Below, in pieces: positions 24,615 to 46,254 of a stretch of DNA of 64,000 nucleotides (position 1 is its first letter; each line of letters begins with the position of its first letter). The notes below the pieces were generated by a model. It did no database searches. It was not told where the DNA came from and was given only the letters and a program-made list of their open reading frames with translations. The DNA lies in contig OY970340.1 of NCBI GenBank assembly GCA_963717465.1, positions 1,184,001 to 1,248,000 of the forward strand, in the 5' to 3' direction. The DNA is from Candidatus Bathyarchaeota archaeon (GTDB taxonomy: Archaea; Thermoproteota; Bathyarchaeia; Bathyarchaeales; Bathycorpusculaceae). The translations under genes and the position numbers were made by a program.

Positions 24615-25034
24615 GTGGGTAAAGTTATGTCGTATGAAGAAAAGCTGTTGAATTTCGTCTATAAGCTGTACTCTATGCTCGGCGATAGCCCAGCAGTTAG
24701 TGAGCCGTTAAAAGATCAAGAAAAAGATGTAGTGGTTGAACTTCGTATCGAAGATGTTCCTGATGTTGTATGGCAGATTGGTTCAAAAAATAAAAAGTGG
24801 CTTGTAAATAAAGGTGCAACCGATACGCCAAGTGCAGTCCTGCAATATCTTAAGGTGAAATACTTAAATGATTGGTGGGCAGGCAAAATGAACTCTGAGA
24901 CATTGTTCTCATCAGGAGCTATGCAGATCGTGGAGGGCTCGTTTGATGATCTTATGTTCATGGCACCTGTGGAAGAACCGTTGAAAGTTGCTTATCAAAA
25001 GTTGAAAGGCGAGTTTCCAGGTCTACCAGAGTAG
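24615..25034 (+). CDS. SCP2 sterol/lipid-binding domain protein
   Basis: Size and the pattern 'W.GKMN..TLF.SG.M.IVEG'. Confidence 0.6.
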   Translation: MGKVMSYEEKLLNFVYKLYSMLGDSPAVSEPLKDQEKDVVVELRIEDVPDVVWQIGSKNKKWLVNKGATDTPSAVLQYLKVKYLNDWWAGKMNSETLFSSGAMQIVEGSFDDLMFMAPVEEPLKVAYQKLKGEFPGLPE

Positions 25035-25134: not shown

Positions 25135-25470
25135 GTGAGACCCAGTATGATAGAAATCTCGGGAAAGAAGATGATAGAAAATAAATGGGTAGAGAAAGAG
25201 GAAAATTTTAAAGTTTTGTTTTCTCTGATGTCGTTTGGCAATAAAAGTGATAGGGCGATTTCCAAAATATTAGGTTTTAATAACTCAATATTTTCTAAGA
25301 GAAGAAAGCTGGAGAAAATGGGTTATGTAAAAGAATATACTATAATACCCGACTTCTGTAAATTAGGATTCGAATTCGTCGTATTTACGTTAGCTTCAAC
25401 TACTAATGCTGTAAAATCAACGCAAATTGCTGAATTTTGTGCATTGACAAATAAACATCCTCAATGTTGA
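25135..25470 (+). pseudogene. Truncated paralogue of the adjacent wHTH regulator
   Basis: ENFKVLFSLM..KSDRAISK...KEYTIIPDF matches both domains of 25725-26882 but stops after KHPQC. Confidence 0.7.
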
Positions 25471-27174: not shown

Positions 27175-29490
27175 ATGAGTGAGGTTAAAATTGAAACAGA
27201 CCCAATGAAGTACGATGGAGTGCATAGATGCATTTGCGGTTTCTGCAGTACTGGAACTTGCTTATTGCTTGAGACGGTTGAAAACGGAAAAATAACTAAG
27301 GTTGAACCTGACTGGGAAAGCCCGTTTAATCCCGGGCCCTACTGTGTAAAATGGAAGTATGCTTTGGAATACATTTATCATAAGGATAGGCCGACCTATC
27401 CGCAAAAGAGAGTTGGTAAACGCGGTGAGGGCAAGTGGCAACGGATATCATGGGAACAAGCGTTCAATGAAATACACGCCAAGATAAAGGAAATAACTGC
27501 AAAGTACGGTGCCGAATCAATGTGTGGCTTCTTTGGCACCGGCCGAGCCGCACATTTAGGTCAGGGAATGTACCGATACTTTTACTTATCAGGCAGCCCA
27601 AACATTGCTTCTGGGCAGGTCGAGCACTGAGATGGACCCACGTTCGCAGCGTTAACGACAACCTACGGCGTGGGAACTACGAATCCAATGATGATTCCAG
27701 GTAAGACGAAAGGTATCTTTAATATTGGCTCGAATCCTATTGAGTCTTGGACGTTTGCGTGGCCAATATACCTTGCGGCCTTGGAGGCCGGCGCGAAAAT
27801 GCTCTGTGTCGATCCCAGATTTACGGAGACTGTGCGAAACAGTGAATTATGGCTAGCCATCAGACCGGGAACTGACACTGCTCTAATGATGGCCCTAATC
27901 AACGTTACCATTGAGGAGGACTTGTACGACCATGATTTTGTGGAGAAATGGTGCTTCGGATTTGACAAGCTCAAAGAACGAGCTAAGCAGTATACACCTG
28001 AGAAAGCTGCAGAAATAACATGGATTCCAGCTGAGAAGATCAGAGAGGCGGCAAGGTGGATAGCGAAAAATCATCCGTGTGATTTTCCATATGGTTACGG
28101 CATCGAATCATCAGGCAGGAACTCTATGAGCAATGTCCGATCAAAATACATTATGCCTGCGATAACTGGTAACATTGACATAGAAGGCGGCGATTACCTA
28201 CATGCAAGACCGAAACAACATAATGGTCTGGAAGCCATGGTACCATCAATAAATTTGACGGATCAAAGCATATTTCAGAAAATGATTGGGGCAGAAAAAT
28301 ACAGAGCCGGAACCTTTACGTTAATGGCTTTGCTTATGGAGGCAGGAATGGATAAAGGATATTGGAAGGGCTCTCCAGTTCCTGCGTTCTCGGGACCAAA
28401 TTGGCCCGCCACTATAGATACTATACTCACGGAAAAGCCCTATCCGATTAAGGTTATGATTGCTGGTGAAACAGGTCCGATGAGGTGTTATCCGAACATC
28501 AAAAAGGTATACGAGGCTATAAAGAAGCTTGATCTCTTCGTCTACATTGAAGACGCTCAAATGACACCCGAAGCAATGCTAGCAGATTATCTATTACCAA
28601 CCACCAGTCAATTTGAGAGACCTTCTGGCTATTCGACTATTACAAGTCAAGGCGCCATGGAATTTGAGATTGCAGGTGATCGCGCATTACCCAACAAAAT
28701 ACCCGGCTTGTGGGACCTTAAAGATGACTGGAACGTGTTCCGCGAACTCGCAGTGCGCTCAGCTCCTGAGAAAATTGAAGAGGCATGGCCTTGGAGAAAT
28801 TTGGAAGAAGCGCAGGATTGGTTCTATGAAAACACAGGCTATACGCGTCAGCAAATTGTTGAAGATTGGAAAGGTGTGGCACCATGGGAGCCCAGGTTTA
28901 AGAAGTATGCGGAGCCAGACCCAGAGACAGGTCAGCCAAGAGGCTTTGGAACATTTTCAGGCAAGGTTGAACTCTACAGCCAGATACTTGAAAAACTTGA
29001 CTATAATCCGTTGCCGTACTATACTGAGTGTGCTTGGACGCCGATCAGCGCTCCTGACATTGCTAAAGACTATCCATTAATCATGACTAGCGGAGCCAGA
29101 TTCCAGGAGGCGCATCATGGCGAACTACGACATATCAGCTTGATGCGAAAGCTACGGCCTGTTCCACGTGTCAAGATGCACCCACTGACAGCGCGTAACA
29201 TGGGCATTGGAGATGGTGAATGGGTTTATATCGAGACGCCACTTGGCAGATGCAAACAGACAGTACGGTACGATTTCGGAGTAAACCCGAAGATAATTGA
29301 TCCAGAGCATGGCTGGTGGAGACCCGAACTACCCGCTGAAGGACCAACACTATACGGCTGGCAAGACTGGAACATTAACGTCACCGTGCCTGATGACCCA
29401 GAGCATCTTAGCCCAGAGCTTGGTGCATGGTGCTTCAAGGCTAATCTTGCAAAAGTATACTCAGCAAAAGTTGGACCTACGGGGCCATAA
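27175..29490 (+). CDS. Mo/W-bisPGD (DMSO reductase family) oxidoreductase with in-frame TGA at 27628 (candidate Sec)
   Basis: N-terminal CGFC..C..C [4Fe-4S], RPTYPQKR, VDPR, RPGTD, ADYLLP, C-terminal HPLTA domain; both listed ORFs are in one frame separated only by TGA. Confidence 0.85.
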
Positions 29491-29851: not shown

Positions 29852-31877
29852 ATGAGTGTAAAATTTAAATACCTTTTCTCCCCGTTGAAAATAGGGCCAG
29901 TGATAATTCCTAACAGAATAATGTTAACTGGCCACGCAAATGCACACGTTGAAACACCGTTAGAAGGCCCAACAGCTCCTGGTGAACATTTGGCCTACTA
30001 TCAGGCTGAAAGAGCAAAAGGCGGCTGTGGACTAATATGCTATGGATACATCTCAGTATGTCCATTTGAGAATGCGGACAGCAAGTTCCATCGCGCACGT
30101 CTTGGTGGTGCGAGAATACTTGGTGCATATCCAGCTGGTCCTGATCCTAAGGTTATTCCAGCTTTTAAGAGATTAGTTGACATGTGCCACCCTTATGGCA
30201 CAAAAGTCTTCGCCCAAATAGGTGCTAGCGGAGTTTGGGAAGGCAGATGGGGACCTTCCAAAACTGTAGATCCAGAAGACCCAAGAAAATCAAACGCAGA
30301 AATGACTGAGGAGCAAATTGAAGCTGTACTTGAAGGTTATAGATTAACTGCCCAGAACGCAGTGAAAGCAGGTTTTGATGGCATTGAAATTCATGATCAC
30401 GGTGGCATGGTGCATAATTTCATGTCTCCTTTAACGAATAGGCGAAAAGACAAGTGGGGCGGGAGCTTAGATAATAGGTTAAGATTCCTTTATGAAGCAA
30501 TCAAGAGATGCAGAGAAGGCATGAACAGTGATATGGCATTAATTACTAGGCTTTGTGTTGACGAATTCATTCCCGGCGGAATAGGAGTGCAAGATGGAAT
30601 AGAAGTCTCAAAGAGACTAGAAGACAAAGTGGACGGCCTTAATCTTGACATAGGAATCGAGCCTACAAGCCTTAACGTTATAGTTGCTCCACTGTTCATG
30701 GAGCCTGGTTATCAATTATACGGAGCTGAAGCAGTAAAAGAAGTCGTGAAAAAAATACCCATAGGTTGTGTCGGTCGAATTAACGACCCAGTGTTCGCTG
30801 AAAAAATCTTAGTTGACGGCAAGGCCGACTTTATAGGTATATGCAGAGGTCAAATAGCTGATCCTGAATTCGCCAATAAAGCCAAGGCAGGAAGACTCGA
30901 TGACATAAGACCATGTATCTATGAAAATGAAGGCTGCTTTAAATCAGGTGCTGTACAATGCACTGTAAATCCCACGTGTGGTGTTGAGAAGTACTTGGGA
31001 ATCGGAACCATCACGTCTGCCGAAAAGAAAAAGAAGATACTTAGTTGCTGGAGCTGGCCCTGCAGGATTAGAATTCGCCAGAATTGCAACTATCAGAGGT
31101 CATAATGTAACCGTTTACGAAAAGTCAAACGATATAGGAGGGGCTATTAATTTAGCCATGAAACTACCGGGAAGAATGGAATATGATGGCTTCAAGAGAT
31201 GGCTTAAAATGCAGTGTGACAAGTTAGGCGTTAAAATTGTCCTCAATAAGGAGGTTACACCTGAACTTGTTAAGAGCGAAAACCCAGACGTTGTAGTGTG
31301 CGCCACTGGAGCTGACCCCATGCGAGACGGTGATAACGCGGGCGTATATTGTGCTATTGAGGGTTGGAATCAGCCGAACGTATGCGTAGGCGAAGACATT
31401 ATTGAAGGCAAAGTTGACATGAGCAAACTTGGACCACGAGTGATCATTTATGATCAAATTGGCTATGATGAAGGTTTGGGAATTGCTGAAATGCTGGCTG
31501 ATGCAGGAAAAACTGTTGATATTAGGGCTGCAGCGCATTTCGTCGGTGGTAATGATGTATTCATGACTATGCAATTTGCACAACTATACGAACGCCCTAT
31601 GTCAAAAGGAGTAAAGTTCAGTCCAATGTCGATGATGACATACATAAATGGGAACAAAGCCGGGTTCATGAACGGATTTAGCCATGAAATGTTTGAAGTA
31701 GAAGCAGATTCTTTTGTGCTCTGTGTGTCTAAATCGCCAAATGATGACCTATTCAAGAAGCTAATGGCAGCAGGATACAAACACAACGGCAACCTATACA
31801 AGATCGGCGACGCCAATAGTCCGCACAACATCTGTGACGCTGTTTACTTCGGTCACGTTTTAGGAAGAGAAATTTAA
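29852..31877 (+). CDS. OYE/FadH (BaiCD/BaiH-like) flavin Fe-S oxidoreductase, frameshift at ~31042
   Basis: LFSPLKIG..NRI, AGFDGIEIH, TNRR.DKWGGS..NR; removing one T joins to ILVAGAGPAG FAD motif. Confidence 0.88.
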
Positions 31878-32226: not shown

Positions 32227-32311
32227 AATCGTGCTGAATAAATTTTCCGTTAAAGAAGGAAATTAGGTTTAAGAGTGTTTGATGACCGGTTCGCTGGGGG
32301 AGGTGAATAAC

Positions 32312-32698
32312 ATGGTGAAATTTGGAACATTGGAATACTATCAGGTACACGCTGACGTTTTAAACAAGGATCCAGACTGGATAAAGGGAGCCTTTACCAG
32401 TAATTTGCTTTATGTCTTTTCTGATGTGCTTGGTGCAGACGGGCAGCCGAAAGCTTTCCTTTTGAAATTTGATAAAGGGAAAGTTACAGCTAGTGAAGCT
32501 AAAGCTTCTGATATTAGTTCCAAGGAAATCGAGTTCGCTCAAACCGCAAATTATGCTATGCATGTAGGTATTGCTAAAGGTGAAATTAGCGTGCAGAAAG
32601 CTAAATTAAAGCTTAGCATGATAAAAATAATGAAGCACCAAAAGACTTTTATGCGAATACTTGAGACCGCGCAAACACTTAAAGATGTTGAATACTGA
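32312..32698 (+). CDS. SCP2 sterol/lipid-binding domain protein
   Basis: GGAGGTGA SD before ATG 32312; paralogue of 39771-40169 (KFGT.EYY ... DVEY). Confidence 0.7.
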   Translation: MVKFGTLEYYQVHADVLNKDPDWIKGAFTSNLLYVFSDVLGADGQPKAFLLKFDKGKVTASEAKASDISSKEIEFAQTANYAMHVGIAKGEISVQKAKLKLSMIKIMKHQKTFMRILETAQTLKDVEY

Positions 32699-32895
32699 GA
32701 TAAGAAGTCTTAAATTGATCCCCTTGACGGAACTTAGACGTTAACGATTGCGAACAGTCATCTCATCTTATAACATTTCTGTGCTCTTTTTGGAAATGTT
32801 GCCCAAATAGAATAAGATTTGAAAGTAGCAAATCAAAAATTGCCTTTTCTTTTTGCTTTAAGGTCGATCAAGTAAGTCCAAAATTACATTTCAAA

Positions 32896-33002
32896 TTGTG
32901 CTAAGAAAGACGTTTCTAGTGCAAAGATGTAAATCATTATAGAATCAATACTTCGTTTTGTTGCAAAAACTTGAGCAGACTCATAGTCTATGCTTAAATA
33001 TC
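32896..33002 (+). promoter_or_regulatory. Island regulon promoter, copy 5 (no convincing ORF downstream)
   Basis: Same boxes at +24/+32/+62/+98. Confidence 0.75.
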
Positions 33003-33096
33003 CACTAAAACGTGATAATTAAGAACAAAATAAATTCGATCAAAAAATTGAAATCATGACTTACCAGACATGAAGGTGCTCACGCTAGAAGTAACA

Positions 33097-33214
33097 TTTT
33101 CACCTTTAGATGGTGGCTATAGGGACGGACTCCCTCCTCCTATAGCCATCGGTAGTGGCTGTAAGGGAATCTCAAACCTCTGTTCCCTGCTCTCGTTCTC
33201 TTATAGCCACTACC
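33097..33214 (+). ncRNA. Putative structured sRNA with two conserved-stem hairpins
   Basis: GGTGGCTATAGG/CCTATAGCCATC (33112-33150) and GGTAGTGGCTGTAAGGGAA/TTCTCTTATAGCCACTACC (33151-33214). Confidence 0.55.
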
Positions 33215-33342
33215 AGCCGGGTTGTCTATTTTGTTTTATAAGAGAGTCTCTTTTTCTCAGAATTTGTAATTTAAAAACCTGTCACAGTTTATTTTTCTTT
33301 TGCTATTTAATTTTGAACGAAGCCTAAAAGTTGCTCTGTAAA

Positions 33343-33448
33343 TTGTGCCCAGAAGAGCATTTTTTTTGCAATAATGTCAATGATGATTAAATAAGTGCCT
33401 TGTTTTGTGTCGAAATACGAAAAGAGCTTGCAATTTACCTTAAATATC
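33343..33448 (+). promoter_or_regulatory. Island regulon promoter, copy 6 (no convincing ORF downstream)
   Basis: Same boxes at +24/+32/+62/+97. Confidence 0.78.
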
Positions 33449-33494
33449 AATCATGCAACTCCTTTAACGCGCTGTGATTCATCAAGTCTCGCGC

Positions 33495-33572
33495 AATTCA
33501 CCTCGGTGGTAGCTATAGGAAGCTTCGTAAAATCAATCTCCTATTATCTATCTCCTTCCTGTAGCTACTACC
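33495..33572 (+). ncRNA. Putative structured sRNA hairpin 3
   Basis: GGTGGTAGCTATAGGAAG/CTTCCTGTAGCTACTACC, 18-bp stem with a compensatory change. Confidence 0.55.
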
Positions 33573-33843
33573 CGCTTGATTGCTAATTCTTTTTAGAATG
33601 AACTTTAATTTAGAATTTGCGGTTTAAAGACTTCCAACATGGCTTTTCTTTTTGCTTTTACAGCACATTAAGGAAAGCCAAAAGTGGTTGAACACTTTTT
33701 AAGTGAATGCTCGTTTTACAGCTAGAACCAGACTAACTTGGTTTATCTAAATATCCAGTTAGGGAGAAGAAATATAGAACCTGAAAAATCAGCTTATGCT
33801 AACTTTATTACACTCTTGAACAAAGCCAAAAACCATTTTAATT

Positions 33844-33948
33844 TTGTGCTAAGAAAGATGTTTTATATGCAAAAACGTCAATCGTTACAAAATAAATACT
33901 TTGTTTTGTGGCTAATGTGAAAAGAACCTTGCAATTTAACTTAAATAT
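33844..33948 (+). promoter_or_regulatory. Island regulon promoter, copy 7
   Basis: Same boxes at +24/+32/+62/+97. Confidence 0.78.
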
Positions 33949-33980
33949 TGTAGCAAGACCCTCTAACGTGCGGCCGCTAT

Positions 33981-34035
33981 TAACCTTTAGGTGGTGGCTA
34001 TAGGATAGCCAAAGTCCCAACCTGTAGCCACCATC
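33981..34035 (+). ncRNA. Hairpin 4 (sRNA or 5' leader of the SDR gene)
   Basis: GGTGGTGGCTATAGG/CCTGTAGCCACCATC, 15-bp stem. Confidence 0.5.
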
Positions 34036-34066
34036 GCAAAAAGTGGAAAAAGAAGGCTTAAAAGTA

Positions 34067-34833
34067 ATGAAGAAATTAGAACAGAAAGTATCCATTATAA
34101 CAGGCGCTGGTTCCGGAATGGGGAAGGCAATCGCGTTATTGTTTGCTTTGGAAGGAAGTAGAATTGTAGCAACTGATATTGATCAGAATAGGCTAAATGA
34201 TCTTAAAGCTGAAATTAACCAGATAGGGGGAGAAGTAACCACTCTTCTTTCTAATATTGCGAAAAAAGAGGACGTGGAAAATATGATACAAGTGTCAACT
34301 GCGACTTACGGGACACTAGATATTTTGGTAAATAATGCTGGTGTTATGGATAGTTTTGGTGCTGTGCATGAAGTTGATGATGCTACATTGGAAAGGTTAA
34401 TGAAAATTAACTTTGAAGGTCCGTTTAGGGCGATGCGTGCAGCTATAAAAGATGTGTTTTTGCCAAAAAAATCTGGCGTTATTGTTAATATCTGCTCAAA
34501 AGCTGGTATTTGCGGGGGGCAGGCGGCGCGGCTTATACTGCAAGTAAATGGGCTCTAGTAGGATTAACGAAAAATACAGGTTTTCTATACTCTAATTCAG
34601 GTGTACGGTGTAATGGAATAGCTCCGGGCAGCGTTGTAACAAATATTCAACAATCAATAGATCCAGATAAAATGGGCATGTTTGCTGACGCGATGAACGC
34701 TGGATTAGTTATAAACCCAAGAGGAGGCGATCCTGAGGAAATAGCAAGAGTTGCCTTATTCTTAGCAAGTGATGATTCTTCATTTATAAATGGCGTAGTT
34801 ATTCCAGTTGACAGTGGCTGGAGCGCATACTAA
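34067..34833 (+). CDS. SDR oxidoreductase (HSDH-like), frameshift in G-run ~34514-34519
   Basis: TGAGSGMG and NNAG in the first ORF; YTASK and VDSGW in the second. Confidence 0.85.
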
Positions 34834-38173: not shown

Positions 38174-38193
38174 AAAAGGAAAGGTGAAAAAAT

Positions 38194-39559
38194 ATGGGAT
38201 ATCTATTGTGGGAAGTCTTGGAAAGAACTAGAACTGGTCCAATCATGAAAGAAGACGAATTTGAGGTCACATATTTTCCGACGATACTAAAGAAGGTCAT
38301 CCAAGATTACAAGATCAAATGGGATGGCGAGCCAGTAATGGCAGATGCACAGATGGCTGATGCTATTTTTGAAGCTGGTATACAAGTGCTAGTTCAGTGC
38401 GGATTATACTGCAAAGATACTAAACACATAGTTAAATTCAATGAAAATGAACTGAGAGAAGTTGTCAAAACACGAAAGCATGAGGTTGAGTGGGGAACCG
38501 GCAGAGACGTGCTAAAGATGGGTATTAGAGGTCCTGAGGATAAGCAGCATCCATACTGCCTAAATGCGGGCGGAACAATGGGAAGCAACATACAAGAGTG
38601 GAGGGACGCTGTTTATCTCGCTGCTCGTGAACCGACGACAGATGGAATGATGACGGGAATACTTGAGGCGTCTTTTGGTCAGAAGTCAACGTATGCTACG
38701 CCTACTGAGTCGCTTGCTGTTCATGCTGAATGTGAGTTGATGACTGCTGGGGCGCGCGCTGCGGGAAGGCCTGGTATGTTGCTTGGTTTTCCTGAGACTG
38801 GTACGAGTATGGTTGCGTTGATGCAGGCTTTTGATCCTGGTTACTATACGCCTAAGGAACTGTATGATGCCAGTGCATATACTGCAGGACATGAGGGTAG
38901 TCGTTGATAGGCTTAATCTTGCTTACTTTGCTATGCAGCATGGGATTGTTCCGTGGCAGAGTTGTAGTCCTACGCTGTACGCTTATATCAGTAGTCCTGA
39001 GGAAGCGGCTGTTGAGGGAATGGCTCATTCGCTGGGTCAGATGGCTTATGCAGACGGGTCATTCACCCAGGCAATGAACAACACAATTGATAACCTATAT
39101 GTAGGTACAGATTGTTTTTGGACTAATTCAGCGATGGCTTTGGCTGCAGAAAGAAACATAAAGGTTCCTTGGATTTCCACCGGATTAGGATTAATGCAAC
39201 CTATGACTGACGCTGATTGGTATGCAACAGCATGTAGCTGCATTAATGCTTGTATATCTGGCATGGAAGGAATGTGGATGGTCGATGGTGGTTGCCCCGT
39301 TATCGGTGTAAGATTTGGAAGTGAATTCACACGAGCAGCTGCTGGAATAAAAGTAAGCGAAGGGACCAAGATAATAAAAGAGCTCACCAAGAAATTTGCA
39401 CCGGCTATAAAGGTATTTGACATTAGTCAAATAATGCGCAGTCTTTACTTGGACTATGACCCGGAAACTTTGAAACCTAGAAAGGAAACTGTGGATATGT
39501 ACAATAGGATGACGAAAGAGTTTAAAGACATGGGTTTTGACTACCCAACATGGGGTTAA
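38194..39559 (+). CDS. Pyrrolysine-free MtmB-family methyltransferase (EmtA-like), frameshift at ~38854
   Basis: R..TGPIMKEDEF, AD.IFEAG, AGRPGMLLGFPE (no TAG at the Pyl position), YLDYD.ETLKP. Confidence 0.8.
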
Positions 39560-40169: not shown

Positions 40170-40236
40170 CTTCTTGTCACCTCCTCATACTTTCCGTGTG
40201 CAGGTTTGTGAAGTTGAAAAACTATACTGTCTGATG

Positions 40237-40342
40237 AATATTTATGGTTGAATTATAGCAAGCTAATACTTCTAACACAAAATAAAGATATTTTGAGTTA
40301 CCTATTTACAAAATTGCATGAATAAAAGGTTTTTAAGCACAA
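40237..40342 (-). promoter_or_regulatory. Island regulon promoter, copy 10 (minus strand)
   Basis: Reverse complement has the same boxes at +24/+32/+62/+97, pointing to the SCP2 gene. Confidence 0.8.
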
Positions 40343-40774
40343 TTTGAATTGCACCTTTTTTTTGCTTTCAATCATAAAATTGTTAGCGAAAGGCGATGAC
40401 CGTGATAAAAATCACCAGTGTGCTCCAGAGCGTGTTCTGGGGTTAACTCAAAACCTCCATATCTTTTAAACTATTTTTTAATTTTTTACTTAACTAAAAA
40501 ATTGCCTTGCCATTATCCACAAAAAGAAACTTGGGCATTATCATCATTTTCTTTGCTGCTAATCGTTAATTTTTCTCACCTAGCATGAAATGGAAAGAAT
40601 TAAAATAAATTGGCAATCATCATACATAAAGACCGAAATTTGCATGCGCACTAACGCTTTTATTGCTTGGGTATTTTGAGCCAGCAAACTTGAGAATAAC
40701 GTTTCCAAGTATGGACGATGTGCAAAAATTGTTAAGAACACAAGGCTGGGCTAGATTTGCCGTGTCTTAATTAG

Positions 40775-44337: not shown

Positions 44338-44799
44338 ATGGCTCAAGGCAGGAAAGAAGAACTAAAAAGCGCCGTTTTAGGAAAGAACGTCACAAAATTT
44401 GTTTTTAATCGTCCCAGCGCCAAAATTCTTGAGATATTTCAAAACAGGTACTCAAAACGTGATTATTTCATTAATATTGATATACCCGAGTTTACCAACA
44501 TTTGTCCGTTAACTGGACAACCAGACTTTGCGGTAATTCGCATACGCTACGTTCCCGACGAAAAATGCTTAGAGTCAAAATCGCTGAAAATCTACATTTT
44601 CTCTTATCGCAATTTTCCTGAATTTCATGAAGATTGCATTAACAGAATTTTAGATGATTGTGTAAAGGTATGTGCGCCTAGATGGATGCAAGTATCGGGC
44701 AAGTTTAATGCCAGAGGAGGCATTTCATTCACGCCTGTGGCTGAGTTCACTAAAAAGGGTTTCAAATTGGCTCAGCAGAGCGCAAAATTAGATTTATGA
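44338..44799 (+). CDS. queF: PreQ0 (7-cyano-7-deazaguanine) reductase, unimodular type
   Basis: PEFTNICPLTGQPDFA, ESKSLKIY, FHE, FNARGGI. Confidence 0.88.
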   Translation: MAQGRKEELKSAVLGKNVTKFVFNRPSAKILEIFQNRYSKRDYFINIDIPEFTNICPLTGQPDFAVIRIRYVPDEKCLESKSLKIYIFSYRNFPEFHEDCINRILDDCVKVCAPRWMQVSGKFNARGGISFTPVAEFTKKGFKLAQQSAKLDL

Positions 44800-45254
44800 T
44801 GCTCGCAAGAGTTGAGGATGCAAAGATGAAAAAATCTGAATTCGACAAATATCTCCAAGAAAGGTACAATGACCAAGTAAAATGGTATGACACCAAAGCA
44901 ATCCTTTACAAAAGATTGAATTACATATTCCAAATCCCAACAATCTTTGTTGCAGCAATTATTCCAATATTCGCTTTGCTTGAACAAAAATGGGTAACAG
45001 TAATCCTTTCAGCTACAATGGCTATATTTATCGGAATCCTGAACTATTCCAAATTCGAGGAAAAATGGCATAATTATAGGTTTACATGTGAAAGACTAAA
45101 GAAAGAACTCTTCTTTTACACAGGTAAAATTGACGACTATAAAAATGCAGAAGAACCAGAGAGCTTGTTTGTTCAGCGAGTTGAATCAATTACTTCCGAC
45201 GAACATTCACAGTGGGTCACAATTGAAAAAACCAAGAAGAAACAAAATCAATAA
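44796..45254 (+). CDS. SLATT / DUF4231 2-TM effector
   Basis: YL.ERY.DQ..WYD.KA, 2 TM, W.NYR.TCE.LK.E, FV.RVE.I. Confidence 0.82.
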   Translation: MMLARVEDAKMKKSEFDKYLQERYNDQVKWYDTKAILYKRLNYIFQIPTIFVAAIIPIFALLEQKWVTVILSATMAIFIGILNYSKFEEKWHNYRFTCERLKKELFFYTGKIDDYKNAEEPESLFVQRVESITSDEHSQWVTIEKTKKKQNQ

Positions 45255-45264
45255 GGCGATTTAA

Positions 45265-46254
45265 TTGCTTGTTGAAAAAAAATCACTTAGATCTTTTAAA
45301 ATTGAAGATTCTGGAAAATCATTTGAAACCCCTTTGTTTGTCCCTGCGACATCTAGTACAAAAGCAAATTGGACAGTTTTGCAATATATTGACTTAATAG
45401 AAAACGTCGGGTATCCGTCGTTTCTTGTCTCAGCTTATGATTATTGCAAGCTTGAAAAAAAGCAAAAAGAGGATTTTGAGAAGCTTTTGGGAAAATACAG
45501 AAAGAAAGGCACTTTTTTCTTTTTAGATAATGGTAACTATGAAGCTTATTGGTACAAAGACAAAAAATGGAATCTGGACGGATTAAGAGATGCTTTGGAG
45601 ACTGTTTGCCCAGACTTTTGCTTTTCCTTTGATGTTTTCTGGGAAAAAGACACAAAAACAGAATCATACATCAAAGATACTGTATCGGCTATTGCAAAAA
45701 CAGCAGGTTCGCAAAAAACAGGGTCAACTATTGCATTGTTTCATTCCAGGCCTGATTTATTTCCGAAAGTAGTTAGAAAAGTCGTTGATAGCATTAATCC
45801 CGAAATAATTGCTGTCCCTGAAAGGGAATTAGGATGTAGCGTTTTTGAACGTGCCCTATCAATTAAAAACATTCGAAGTGAACTTGATAAAGACGGAAAG
45901 TTGATACCAATGCATATTCTCGGCACAGGTAACCCACTTTCAATTCTTATTTACACATTGTGTGGAGCTGATACCTTCGATGCCCTTGATTGGTCAAGTG
46001 TATTTATGGACCCAAAAACTTGTCAGCAGGGTCATTTTTCACAGAAGGATTTGTCAACCTGTAGTTGCGAGGCATGTCAATTGAAACAGGTTCCATACGA
46101 TTACCAGGTCATGGCCCACAATCTAATCTTCTATCAAAGATTCTTGGAAAAAATCAAAAAATCTCTTGAATCATGTAAAGTTGATACGCTGCTCAAAGAG
46201 TATCTATCTGACAAAAACGTATTGGAAGTAAAGAAAATAGCGGTATTGAAATGA
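45265..46254 (+). CDS. TGT-like (tRNA-guanine transglycosylase fold) protein, Cap10-like
   Basis: ETPLFVP, LDNGNYE, HILGTG, GADTFD, CSCEAC...HNL zinc site. Confidence 0.8.
   Translation: MLVEKKSLRSFKIEDSGKSFETPLFVPATSSTKANWTVLQYIDLIENVGYPSFLVSAYDYCKLEKKQKEDFEKLLGKYRKKGTFFFLDNGNYEAYWYKDKKWNLDGLRDALETVCPDFCFSFDVFWEKDTKTESYIKDTVSAIAKTAGSQKTGSTIALFHSRPDLFPKVVRKVVDSINPEIIAVPERELGCSVFERALSIKNIRSELDKDGKLIPMHILGTGNPLSILIYTLCGADTFDALDWSSVFMDPKTCQQGHFSQKDLSTCSCEACQLKQVPYDYQVMAHNLIFYQRFLEKIKKSLESCKVDTLLKEYLSDKNVLEVKKIAVLK

Follow-up and report, generated by a model that had tools for sequence, protein, structure and literature searches.

The stretch of DNA analysed here (64,000 nucleotides of the genome of a Candidatus Bathyarchaeota archaeon; hereafter the window) is part of a single 3.05-Mb contig and contains, at 33097-34035, four hairpins with closely related arms (33109-33150, 33151-33214, 33505-33572 and 33990-34035; coordinates are those of the window unless given as genome positions). 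We tentatively interpret these hairpins as parts of a family of sibling small RNAs (sRNAs) that would act on messages of the surrounding catabolic gene islands. Their minimum free energies are -21.3, -31.2, -28.7 and -26.0 kcal/mol, respectively, with z-scores of -3.6, -5.4, -6.6 and -4.8, and an equal fold was reached in 0 of 200 shuffles of each; the stems comprise 13, 20, 18 and 15 bp and enclose loops of about 15, 24, 32 and 16 nt. An earlier, model-generated reading of the letters (the initial annotation) had described four conserved-stem, variable-loop hairpins behind regulon promoters as a putative new sRNA class; the hairpins were found where it had placed them, with stem and loop sizes close to those it had given, and three of the loops are C/U-rich with CTCC or CCTC, as it had noted.

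The hairpins are distributed over three units, all on the plus strand, each of which begins with a copy of a regulon promoter module. The first copy ('copy 5', 32867-33004, genome 1216867-1217004; nhmmer E 4e-25; repeat family D1) consists of a conserved block and a TATA box at 32994-33001. It is followed, about 73 nt past the inferred transcription start, by a linker (UUUUCACCUUUA, 33097-33108) that resembles an anti-Shine-Dalgarno sequence and mimics the 3' end of 16S rRNA, by hairpin a of a double unit (33109-33150; 13-bp stem and C-rich loop GACGGACUCCCUCCU in the predicted fold; weak covariance-model match at 33077-33157), by hairpin b (33151-33214; 20-bp stem, 24-nt C/U-rich loop; inverted repeat I4), and by a tail, AGCCGGGUUGUC then UAUUUUGUUUUAU (33215-33239), which is a putative oligo-U terminator. 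In the fold of 33092-33240, GGGU of the tail is predicted to pair with ACCU of the linker.

The second unit comprises promoter copy 6 (33314-33450; TATA box 33440-33447; nhmmer E 5e-28), a 5' hairpin termed P1 (33469-33494), which begins 21 nt past the TATA box, has a GCGC base and an internal loop and shows covariation (helix 1), a linker (AAUUCACCUC, 33495-33504), the main hairpin termed P2 (33505-33572; 18-bp stem, 32-nt loop with two AUCUCC motifs; covariance-model match at 33469-33576, 40.3 bits), and a tail ending in UUCUUUUUAG (33573-33597), again a putative oligo-U terminator. The loop of this P2 is antisense to the 5' untranslated region (UTR) and start of selenoprotein molybdopterin oxidoreductase paralogs. 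In the third unit, promoter copy 7 (33816-33950; TATA box 33941-33948; nhmmer E 8e-26) is followed by a linker (UUAACCUUUA, 33980-33989) and a P2 hairpin (33990-34035; 15-bp stem, loop AUAGCCAAAGUCCCAA of the type termed class I below; covariance-model match at 33970-34039, 78 bits), with no P1. This P2 lies in the 5' UTR of a short-chain dehydrogenase (SDR) gene (34043-34833; Pfam adh_short on both pieces), which occupies two frames split at about 34510-34558 and has an in-frame ATG at 34067. Promoter copies 5, 6 and 7 had been reported just upstream of the hairpins, and the promoter repeats indeed end at about 33004, 33450 and 33950, in fixed distance and orientation.

The arm consensus GGTRGTRGCTRTARG (at most 2 mismatches) has seven matches in the window, all inside 33109-34035; shuffled sequences gave a mean of 0.60 matches, and seven were reached in 0 of 100 shuffles. 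In a repeat search of the window the arms were grouped into a direct family, D5, with 81-100% identity, and into the inverted pairs I4 and I14, whereas the upstream promoter repeats (families D1 and D2) are 64-74% identical. The P2 repeats are inverted arms around 9-38 nt, spaced at 396-485 nt and each preceded by a promoter, unlike the regularly spaced direct repeats of an array of clustered regularly interspaced short palindromic repeats (CRISPR), and probably also unlike integron attC sites, which flank cassettes and lack promoters. Searched against Rfam 15 at gathering score, the whole window gave a tRNA as sole match; 32700-34200 at E <= 10 gave seven weak matches, all far under gathering scores, and nothing relevant was found at E <= 1 in two related loci elsewhere in the genome (125432-125570 and 2496680-2496860). 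No conserved open reading frame (ORF) across the hairpins was found among ten elements examined, in agreement with the statement of the initial annotation that promoter copies 5 and 6 lack a credible ORF: three of the ten have stops in all three sense frames, and the open frames in the remainder (25-120 codons) are inconsistent. A small-protein reading was rejected for these reasons.

A mismatch-tolerant scan of the genome, followed by inspection of the flanks, identified additional copies near genome 125.5, 126.4, 176.3, 2488.2, 2496.7, 2793.7, 2796.8 and 2987.2 kb, and brought the family to a total of 11 loci with 13-14 hairpins. A covariance model (CM) built from four short-loop copies (alignment A3) gave 19 matches in the genome at E <= 10, which collapse to the same 11 loci, since some are antisense echoes of the near-palindromic arms; no further locus was found. 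All 11 loci have a TATA box upstream, lie in one orientation relative to it, and none is inside a gene.

The common plan of the loci is a TATA box (TTAAATAT), the GC-based hairpin P1, the linker (consensus (U)AUUCACCU(C); summary form UAUUCACCUC), the conserved-stem hairpin P2 and, in several copies, the tail GGUUGUCAAUUUU. P1 starts 21-23 nt past the TATA box in 7/7 P1-bearing copies, and P2 is predicted to fold without interruption in the four copies of the window (13-20 bp) and likewise in most others. Three loci are double-P2 units (33109/33151, genome 125432-125570 and genome 2496680-2496860), in which the linker is followed by two tandem P2-like hairpins, beginning 70-200 nt past the TATA box. 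Degenerate copies are found at genome 2793669-2793708 (shortened loop, bulge), at genome 2987186-2987291 (no 3' arm) and at 33990 (no P1). Nine loci stand alone or are more than 200 nt from the next ORF; the other two lie directly before an ORF, as 5' leaders of the SDR gene (33990) and of a CrtC-like gene (the degenerate genome 2987186-2987291). With 2/11 copies directly before an ORF, and the others followed by convergent genes or another promoter, the arrangement is not as expected of a riboswitch or cis-acting leader, which would sit in the 5' UTR of the regulated gene with an expression platform. The post-P2 tail TTGTCAATTTTGC (33220-33233; also at about 5345-5330, minus strand, of locus L004) has an inverted likeness to the promoter-module motif TTGCAAAAATGTCAA, and the A-U(4-6)-G pattern of these tails presumably recalls binding sites of Sm proteins. 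The family of four is, hence, the window's share of a larger family, and its conserved stem is one helix of a larger conserved unit; the loops do differ from each other, as had been noted, but they are not unrelated and fall into recurring classes.

Whole units fold with z-scores of -4.8 to -6.7, and an equal fold was found in 0 of 200 shuffles. Covariation was counted in a model-based alignment of seven canonical copies (A5); two MAFFT alignments (A1 and A2), in which P1 of some copies was misplaced, were kept out of the counts. Standard pairs make up 94.8% of the cells of A5, and two-sided changes occur at 8 of 26 pairs (five in P1 and three in P2), compared to 3.2 +/- 1.3 in shuffles, where 8 was reached in 1 of 500, and to 0-3 in slid controls. 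In an ungapped register of 12 P2 hairpins, arm positions 4, 7, 12, 14 and 15 are occupied by G-C, A-U or G-U in different copies (the out-of-register row, for the first hairpin of the unit at genome 125 kb, was disregarded). Within the helices, G-U pairs (about 11) outnumber A-C mismatches (2). A site in double-stranded DNA would lack this bias, and the excess therefore points to RNA read from the promoter strand. The compensatory changes and G-U pairs that had been noted in the stems thus extend to helices that covary, on the promoter strand, beyond shuffled and slid controls.

A profile built on nine copies of the promoter has 37 matches in the genome, of which 10 are in the window (about 22150, 26988, 29648, 32090, 32867, 33314, 33816, 34920 and 36304 on the plus strand, and 40235-40369 on the minus strand). 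The module spans about 135 nt, with a conserved upstream block and the TATA box. Twenty-four of the 37 promoters are followed by the start of an ORF (>=80 aa) within 110 nt, eight by a hairpin element, two by a distant ORF and three by no ORF; ORF-less promoters other than those of the hairpins (genome 126230, 849914 and 2415278) are followed by unrelated sequence with no scaffold. Eight of the 11 hairpin loci thus follow one of the 37 modules, and the other three have a related promoter that the profile missed. Paralogous gene sets driven by the promoter comprise (by Pfam) MttB-like methyltransferases with corrinoid proteins, molybdopterin oxidoreductases, old-yellow-enzyme (OYE)-type flavin reductases, short-chain dehydrogenases, CrtC-like proteins and HTH_24 regulators; by inference from this Pfam content, the regulon serves the anaerobic breakdown of methylated or aromatic compounds. 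Two ORFs of 139 aa were also seen behind regulon promoters (genome 133331 and 1216090). At locus L004 (5100-5240 to about 5010, minus strand), a stretch without ORFs behind another copy of the regulon promoter contains a GC-rich hairpin and 10-11 consecutive T, and is possibly a further small RNA lacking the P1/P2 scaffold.

The loops are G-poor and carry CUCC or UCCC motifs. Class I loops (A.AGCCAAA.UCCCAA) are found at 33990 and at genome 126 kb and 2488 kb, with remnants at 2793 kb and 2987 kb; class II loops (UCAAUCUCCUA...) at 33505 and in the 2796-kb copy (genome 2796724-2796791); and an AAUCCC(U)C loop class in the first hairpin of double units. Class I loops differ at 1-2 of 16 positions while the class I arms carry compensated changes. 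The start regions of regulon genes often read AAUAGGAGAUA upstream of the start codon. The loops were compared with 24 translation-initiation regions (TIRs) of the regulon, defined as the first start after the promoter that opens an ORF of >=80 aa; controls were 300 shuffles per loop and 1,063 genome-wide TIRs bearing a Shine-Dalgarno (SD) 5-mer. For 5/12 loops, representing three classes, contiguous pairing of 10-12 nt was found, beyond the 300 shuffles (P 0.000-0.017), and four of these five also exceeded shuffles in duplex energy (P <= 0.01). None of the 1,063 SD-bearing TIRs reached the 12 nt matched by the 33505 loop; the set-level P was 0.022 for two class I loops (126 kb and 2488 kb) and for the second loop of the 125-kb unit, and 0.087 for the 2796-kb loop.

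The most stable predicted duplex is that of the 33505 loop with the leader of a selenoprotein oxidoreductase gene starting at genome 616633 (-30.3 kcal/mol; positions -28 to +8), and the 2796-kb loop is predicted to pair with the same leader (-26.0 kcal/mol; -32 to +4). Aligned to the reverse complement of the 616633 5' UTR, the 33505 loop matches over about 35 nt, with identical blocks of 12 and 7 nt and a short indel between them. For class I, the predicted partner is the leader of an OYE-type reductase gene starting at genome 1137419 (-17.5 kcal/mol; -18 to -3), and for the second loop of the 125-kb unit it is the SD of that unit's own downstream oxidoreductase gene (-15.5 kcal/mol; -17 to -2); the latter loop also matches an MttB-like methyltransferase gene. 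A guide-like match of >=16 nt was found for no loop, genome-wide; the longest matches (13-15 nt) lie at scattered non-start positions and are at chance expectation in 6 Mb, and CRISPR RNA-like guides were dropped as a candidate. The variable guide loops of the initial annotation are, hence, partly supported, in that three loop classes are complementary to regulon TIRs, and not supported for the remaining 7/12 loops.

The linker (compared, for 33097-33108, with the 16S 3' end GGATCACCTCCT) has UCACCU in common with the end of the genome's archaeal 16S rRNA, GGAUCACCUCCU, in 9 of 11 copies. The leader TTTTCACCTTT had been described as complementary to the SD regions of an MtmB-like and a nuoN-like gene, and its reverse complement is indeed present at 38180 and 20367: the 11-mer AAAGGTGAAAA ends 3 nt before the ATG in both cases (38194 and 20381), with three matches in the window including the leader itself, compared to 0.16 expected. 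We read these matches as the encounter of a generic SD (GGUGA) with an equally generic UCACCU that mimics the 16S tail, and not as a specific guide. In 3/6 folds the linker ACCU is paired with AGGU or GGGU of the tail, which closes P2.

Taken together, these observations argue, at somewhat less than an even chance in our judgement, for a set of sibling anti-ribosome-binding-site (anti-RBS) sRNAs on a constant scaffold for translational control of regulon mRNAs. The hairpins would form the main helix, P2, in a family of about eleven paralogous sRNAs, each transcribed from its own archaeal promoter; eight of them would use the repeated promoter module of the regulon and, because of this shared module, would switch on with the surrounding catabolic islands. 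Each RNA would comprise, in order, the short GC-rich P1, the 16S-3'-end-like linker, the long and near-constant P2, sometimes doubled, and an oligo-U end, with the pairing of linker and tail closing the structure in some copies. The scaffold would present an apical loop, poor in G, rich in C/U and different from copy to copy, which would pair with SD region and start codon in certain messages of the regulon and so damp or time their translation. Class II loops would act on the selenocysteine molybdopterin oxidoreductase paralogs, class I loops on the OYE-type reductase, and a third loop type on the MttB-like methyltransferase and its own downstream oxidoreductase. Transcription, RNA ends and translational effect are inferred throughout.

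Several observations weigh against this proposal of anti-RBS RNAs. The copies are paralogs of one genome that share ancestry, and A5 was fitted to the model, so that the covariation figures are inflated; the G-U counts include shared changes and perhaps represent 6-7 independent events. The pairing of linker and tail is without covariation, in addition to its limitation to half of the folds. A run of >=4 T within 17 nt after P2 is present in just 5 of 11 copies. The definition of the regulon TIR set is crude, 7/12 loops have no complementarity above the shuffle or 1,063-TIR controls, the significant loops represent only three independent classes, and every loop also has many chance matches of 10-13 nt elsewhere in the genome. 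A search for RNA sequencing runs that contain this stretch found none, and contigs of the single DNA run cover 7 of 30 bins, none of which is a hairpin. Furthermore, the assembly is of metagenome type and has frameshifted genes nearby, and some positions may therefore be errors.

A more far-reaching version, which we consider distinctly doubtful, is that of a natural 'programmable' antisense system, in which the fixed scaffold (P1, closing helix and P2 arms) would receive inverted copies of target 5' UTRs. New regulators may then arise by replacement of the loop and not by point mutation, and the family may have diversified in one species in step with the amplification of its target gene families.

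As far as searched, the hairpin family is confined to one genome. The CM matched none of 119 other genomes of the genus and none of 150 other genomes sampled across the class; searches of more than 40 genomes used stricter filters, by which weak matches can be missed. A strict two-arm pattern had no locus in the GTDB representative genomes (185,579 species genomes) and one in the JGI metagenomes, which is an unrelated long palindrome and was rejected. A P1-linker-arm pattern had 46 loci in GTDB genomes (45 bacterial, and one in a metagenome-assembled genome of a euryarchaeote), close to a hand-estimated chance level of roughly 50, and a linker-arm pattern gave 0-2 matches per genome in 40 relatives, which is the level of the reversed-pattern control (the nine matches in relatives show no hairpin). 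BLAST with one copy of the promoter module matched 0/119 genomes of the genus, and the oxidoreductase of the islands had no large-subunit match in 60 genus genomes at E <= 1e-40. Since hairpin family, promoter and oxidoreductase were all missing from the genus genomes searched, the system as a whole has the look of a lineage-specific amplification; analogues that differ in sequence are possible elsewhere, because non-coding DNA diverges quickly. The putative new sRNA class of the initial annotation so far amounts to a single family from a single genome, for which the proposed Rfam and CM searches returned no known family and no locus beyond its own 11.

This restriction to one genome would also fit non-functional leftovers, i.e. 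promoter-plus-leader modules that were copied with the islands, in part lost their genes, and persist by recent origin or gene conversion, and the degenerate copies (2793669-2793708, 2987186-2987291 and 33990) agree with such an origin. Against decay stand the changes in both helices, which are compensated well beyond the shuffled and slid controls, the loops, which were replaced or resized while the arms stayed 81-100% identical and better kept than the promoters, and the excess of G-U over A-C, which is not expected under neutral decay; we consider leftovers rather unlikely. Alternatively, the elements could be protein-binding or ligand-sensing scaffolds, in which a regulator recognises the constant P1-linker-P2 core and the loops are incidental; 5'-UTR copies would act in cis, and stand-alone copies would serve as decoys or sponges for the same factor. 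Such a role would account for a P2 arm and linker conserved in sequence beyond pairing, for the two copies directly in 5' UTRs (33990 and genome 2987186-2987291), for the 7/12 loops without a convincing target and for the HTH_24 regulator genes that adjoin several copies. However, the two are just 2 of 11 copies, loops within a class are conserved more strongly than stems, no RNA-binding protein gene was identified in the islands, and no Rfam riboswitch matched, and a scaffold of this kind is in our view unlikely, if a serious candidate. At the level of DNA, the elements could be operators for the island regulators, recombination sites, or repeats resembling repetitive extragenic palindromic (REP) sequences or miniature inverted-repeat transposable elements (MITEs). 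The near-palindromic arms are conserved at the level of sequence, a repressor could be seated at P1, which overlaps the inferred transcription start, and the likeness of tail TTGTCAATTTTGC to motif TTGCAAAAATGTCAA is of a kind with such sites; yet an arm spacing of 9-38 nt is unlike an operator, all 11 loci have the same orientation and distance to the TATA box, with none in genes or scattered, and the G-U pairs carry a strand bias. Target-site duplications or a transposase context were not noticed in the sequence, for which no systematic search was made. We regard a DNA-level element as improbable, and scattered REP/MITE-like repeats, named in advance as a finding that would speak against the sRNA interpretation, are not what the 11 loci in sense orientation behind their TATA boxes represent.

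A last alternative is that the hairpins are selenocysteine insertion sequence (SECIS) elements for the 11 selenocysteine molybdopterin oxidoreductase genes, acting either in trans or, from long 5' leaders, in cis. The apparently 'split' oxidoreductase gene of the window (27175-27630 and 27670-29490) is one frame with a TGA at 27628-27630, and all 11 paralogs have an in-frame TGA at this one conserved position, which probably encodes selenocysteine. The genome also encodes tRNA-Sec, SepSecS and SelD. The 3' UTRs reach oligo-T within about 35 nt and leave no room for a SECIS, two double-hairpin units are located 240-340 nt upstream of selenoprotein oxidoreductase genes, and a 5'-UTR SECIS is reported for fdhA of M. 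jannaschii (PMC9499178). Nevertheless, an element lies within about 1 kb of only 3/11 of the selenoprotein oxidoreductase genes, a regulon promoter intervenes between element and gene in both upstream cases, and no element lies near selD, which carries an in-frame TGA of its own. The helix of methanococcal SECIS elements is typically interrupted by a conserved asymmetric internal loop, whereas P2 is continuous. Finally, a different conserved hairpin, 9 nt after each UGA, is the better SECIS candidate; this hairpin within the ORF and the poor association of P2 with the genes (3/11) make a SECIS role for P2 unlikely, and we rate it as highly improbable.

The post-UGA hairpin (27637-27674 in the window) has 11 pairs, four of them with two-sided changes, and sits at the position of a bacterial SECIS, yet its host is an archaeon with SepSecS. 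The tRNA-Sec gene (71.8 bits) adjoins SepSecS. The selD gene (locus L108, 1264-2511) is followed 60 nt on (2571 onward) by a kinase-like gene that starts with a P-loop motif and could encode PSTK or a PSTK-SelB fusion as reported for Bathyarchaeota; a SECIS-like hairpin was not evident in the spacer between the two genes. Use of selenocysteine in Ca. Bathyarchaeota is already reported (PMC9499178).

Other features of the window include three genes that each consist of two overlapping ORFs in different frames, i.e. those for an OYE-type reductase (29852-31877), the SDR (34043-34833; its frame break sits at a run of G) and an MtmB-like protein (38194-39559), which are either assembly indel errors or pseudogenes. 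A QueF-like gene, a gene for a DUF4231/SLATT two-transmembrane effector-like protein and a TGT-like gene lie in a row at 44338-46254 and could represent a 7-deazaguanine or defence-type module. Small proteins with no Pfam match are predicted at 24615-25034 (139 aa), 25135-25470 (111 aa) and 32279-32698 (139 aa).

To our knowledge, the regulatory RNAs of uncultured archaea are almost unknown, and a full-text literature search returned no relevant account of small RNAs in Bathyarchaeia. If the RNAs are made, this lineage would gain its first described family of sibling sRNAs, which would be an unusual case in which a paired scaffold is conserved and the seed is exchangeable. They would also add a post-transcriptional layer to a lineage-specific, amplified regulon of eleven selenocysteine molybdopterin enzymes, corrinoid methyltransferases and flavin reductases.

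In Methanosarcina mazei, sRNA154 (by its loop 2) and sRNA41 mask ribosome-binding sites (PMC5867862). The candidates described here would have in common with these archaeal, trans-encoded RNAs the stable stem-loops, the anti-RBS pairing with metabolic mRNAs and an expression tied to a regulon. However, sRNA154 and sRNA41 are single-copy and genus-conserved, as far as described there, whereas about 11 paralogs with one scaffold and exchangeable loops are found here in one genome; the predicted targets, unlike theirs, lie inside the same promoter regulon, and there is no sequence or Rfam relationship. The Rsa RNAs and RNAIII of Staphylococcus aureus use unpaired UCCC motifs to bind the Shine-Dalgarno sequence and block initiation (PMC2790875), and resemble the present units in the 5' hairpin, the terminator (putative here) and the C-rich motifs in loops or unpaired regions (UCCC there, UCCC or CUCC in the loops here); they are bacterial, unrelated in sequence, and not described as a multi-copy family on one scaffold. 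Repeated palindromes of the REP/MITE type are likewise short, imperfect and intergenic, but the present family comprises only 11 loci, at fixed distance and orientation behind a TATA box, in one set of islands and with a G-U strand bias. Archaeal SECIS elements (PMC9499178) are similar in being hairpins of untranslated regions in a selenoprotein-encoding organism, and two of the units here are upstream of selenoprotein genes; they differ in that the present hairpins are mostly unlinked to such genes and have their own promoter and their own putative terminator.

A further parallel is FopS, a set of 14 paralogous sRNAs of Bacteroides thetaiotaomicron, which pair close to the start codon and thereby repress translation of the genes that head paralogous catabolic loci (PMC11697453); a multi-copy sRNA family, paralogous catabolic loci and pairing near the start codon would be the features in common. 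According to the same source, FopS RNAs have a constant single-stranded 5' seed and a variable downstream part, and are conserved across species, whereas the hairpin family described here is not, and has a constant paired scaffold with a variable loop as the presumed seed. The hairpin family has no homology to sRNA154/sRNA41, Rsa/RNAIII or FopS. The anti-RBS mechanism proposed for it is familiar from these systems, whereas the modular form that it would take here, with a conserved paired scaffold, a varying seed, and a promoter in common with the predicted targets, is unfamiliar.

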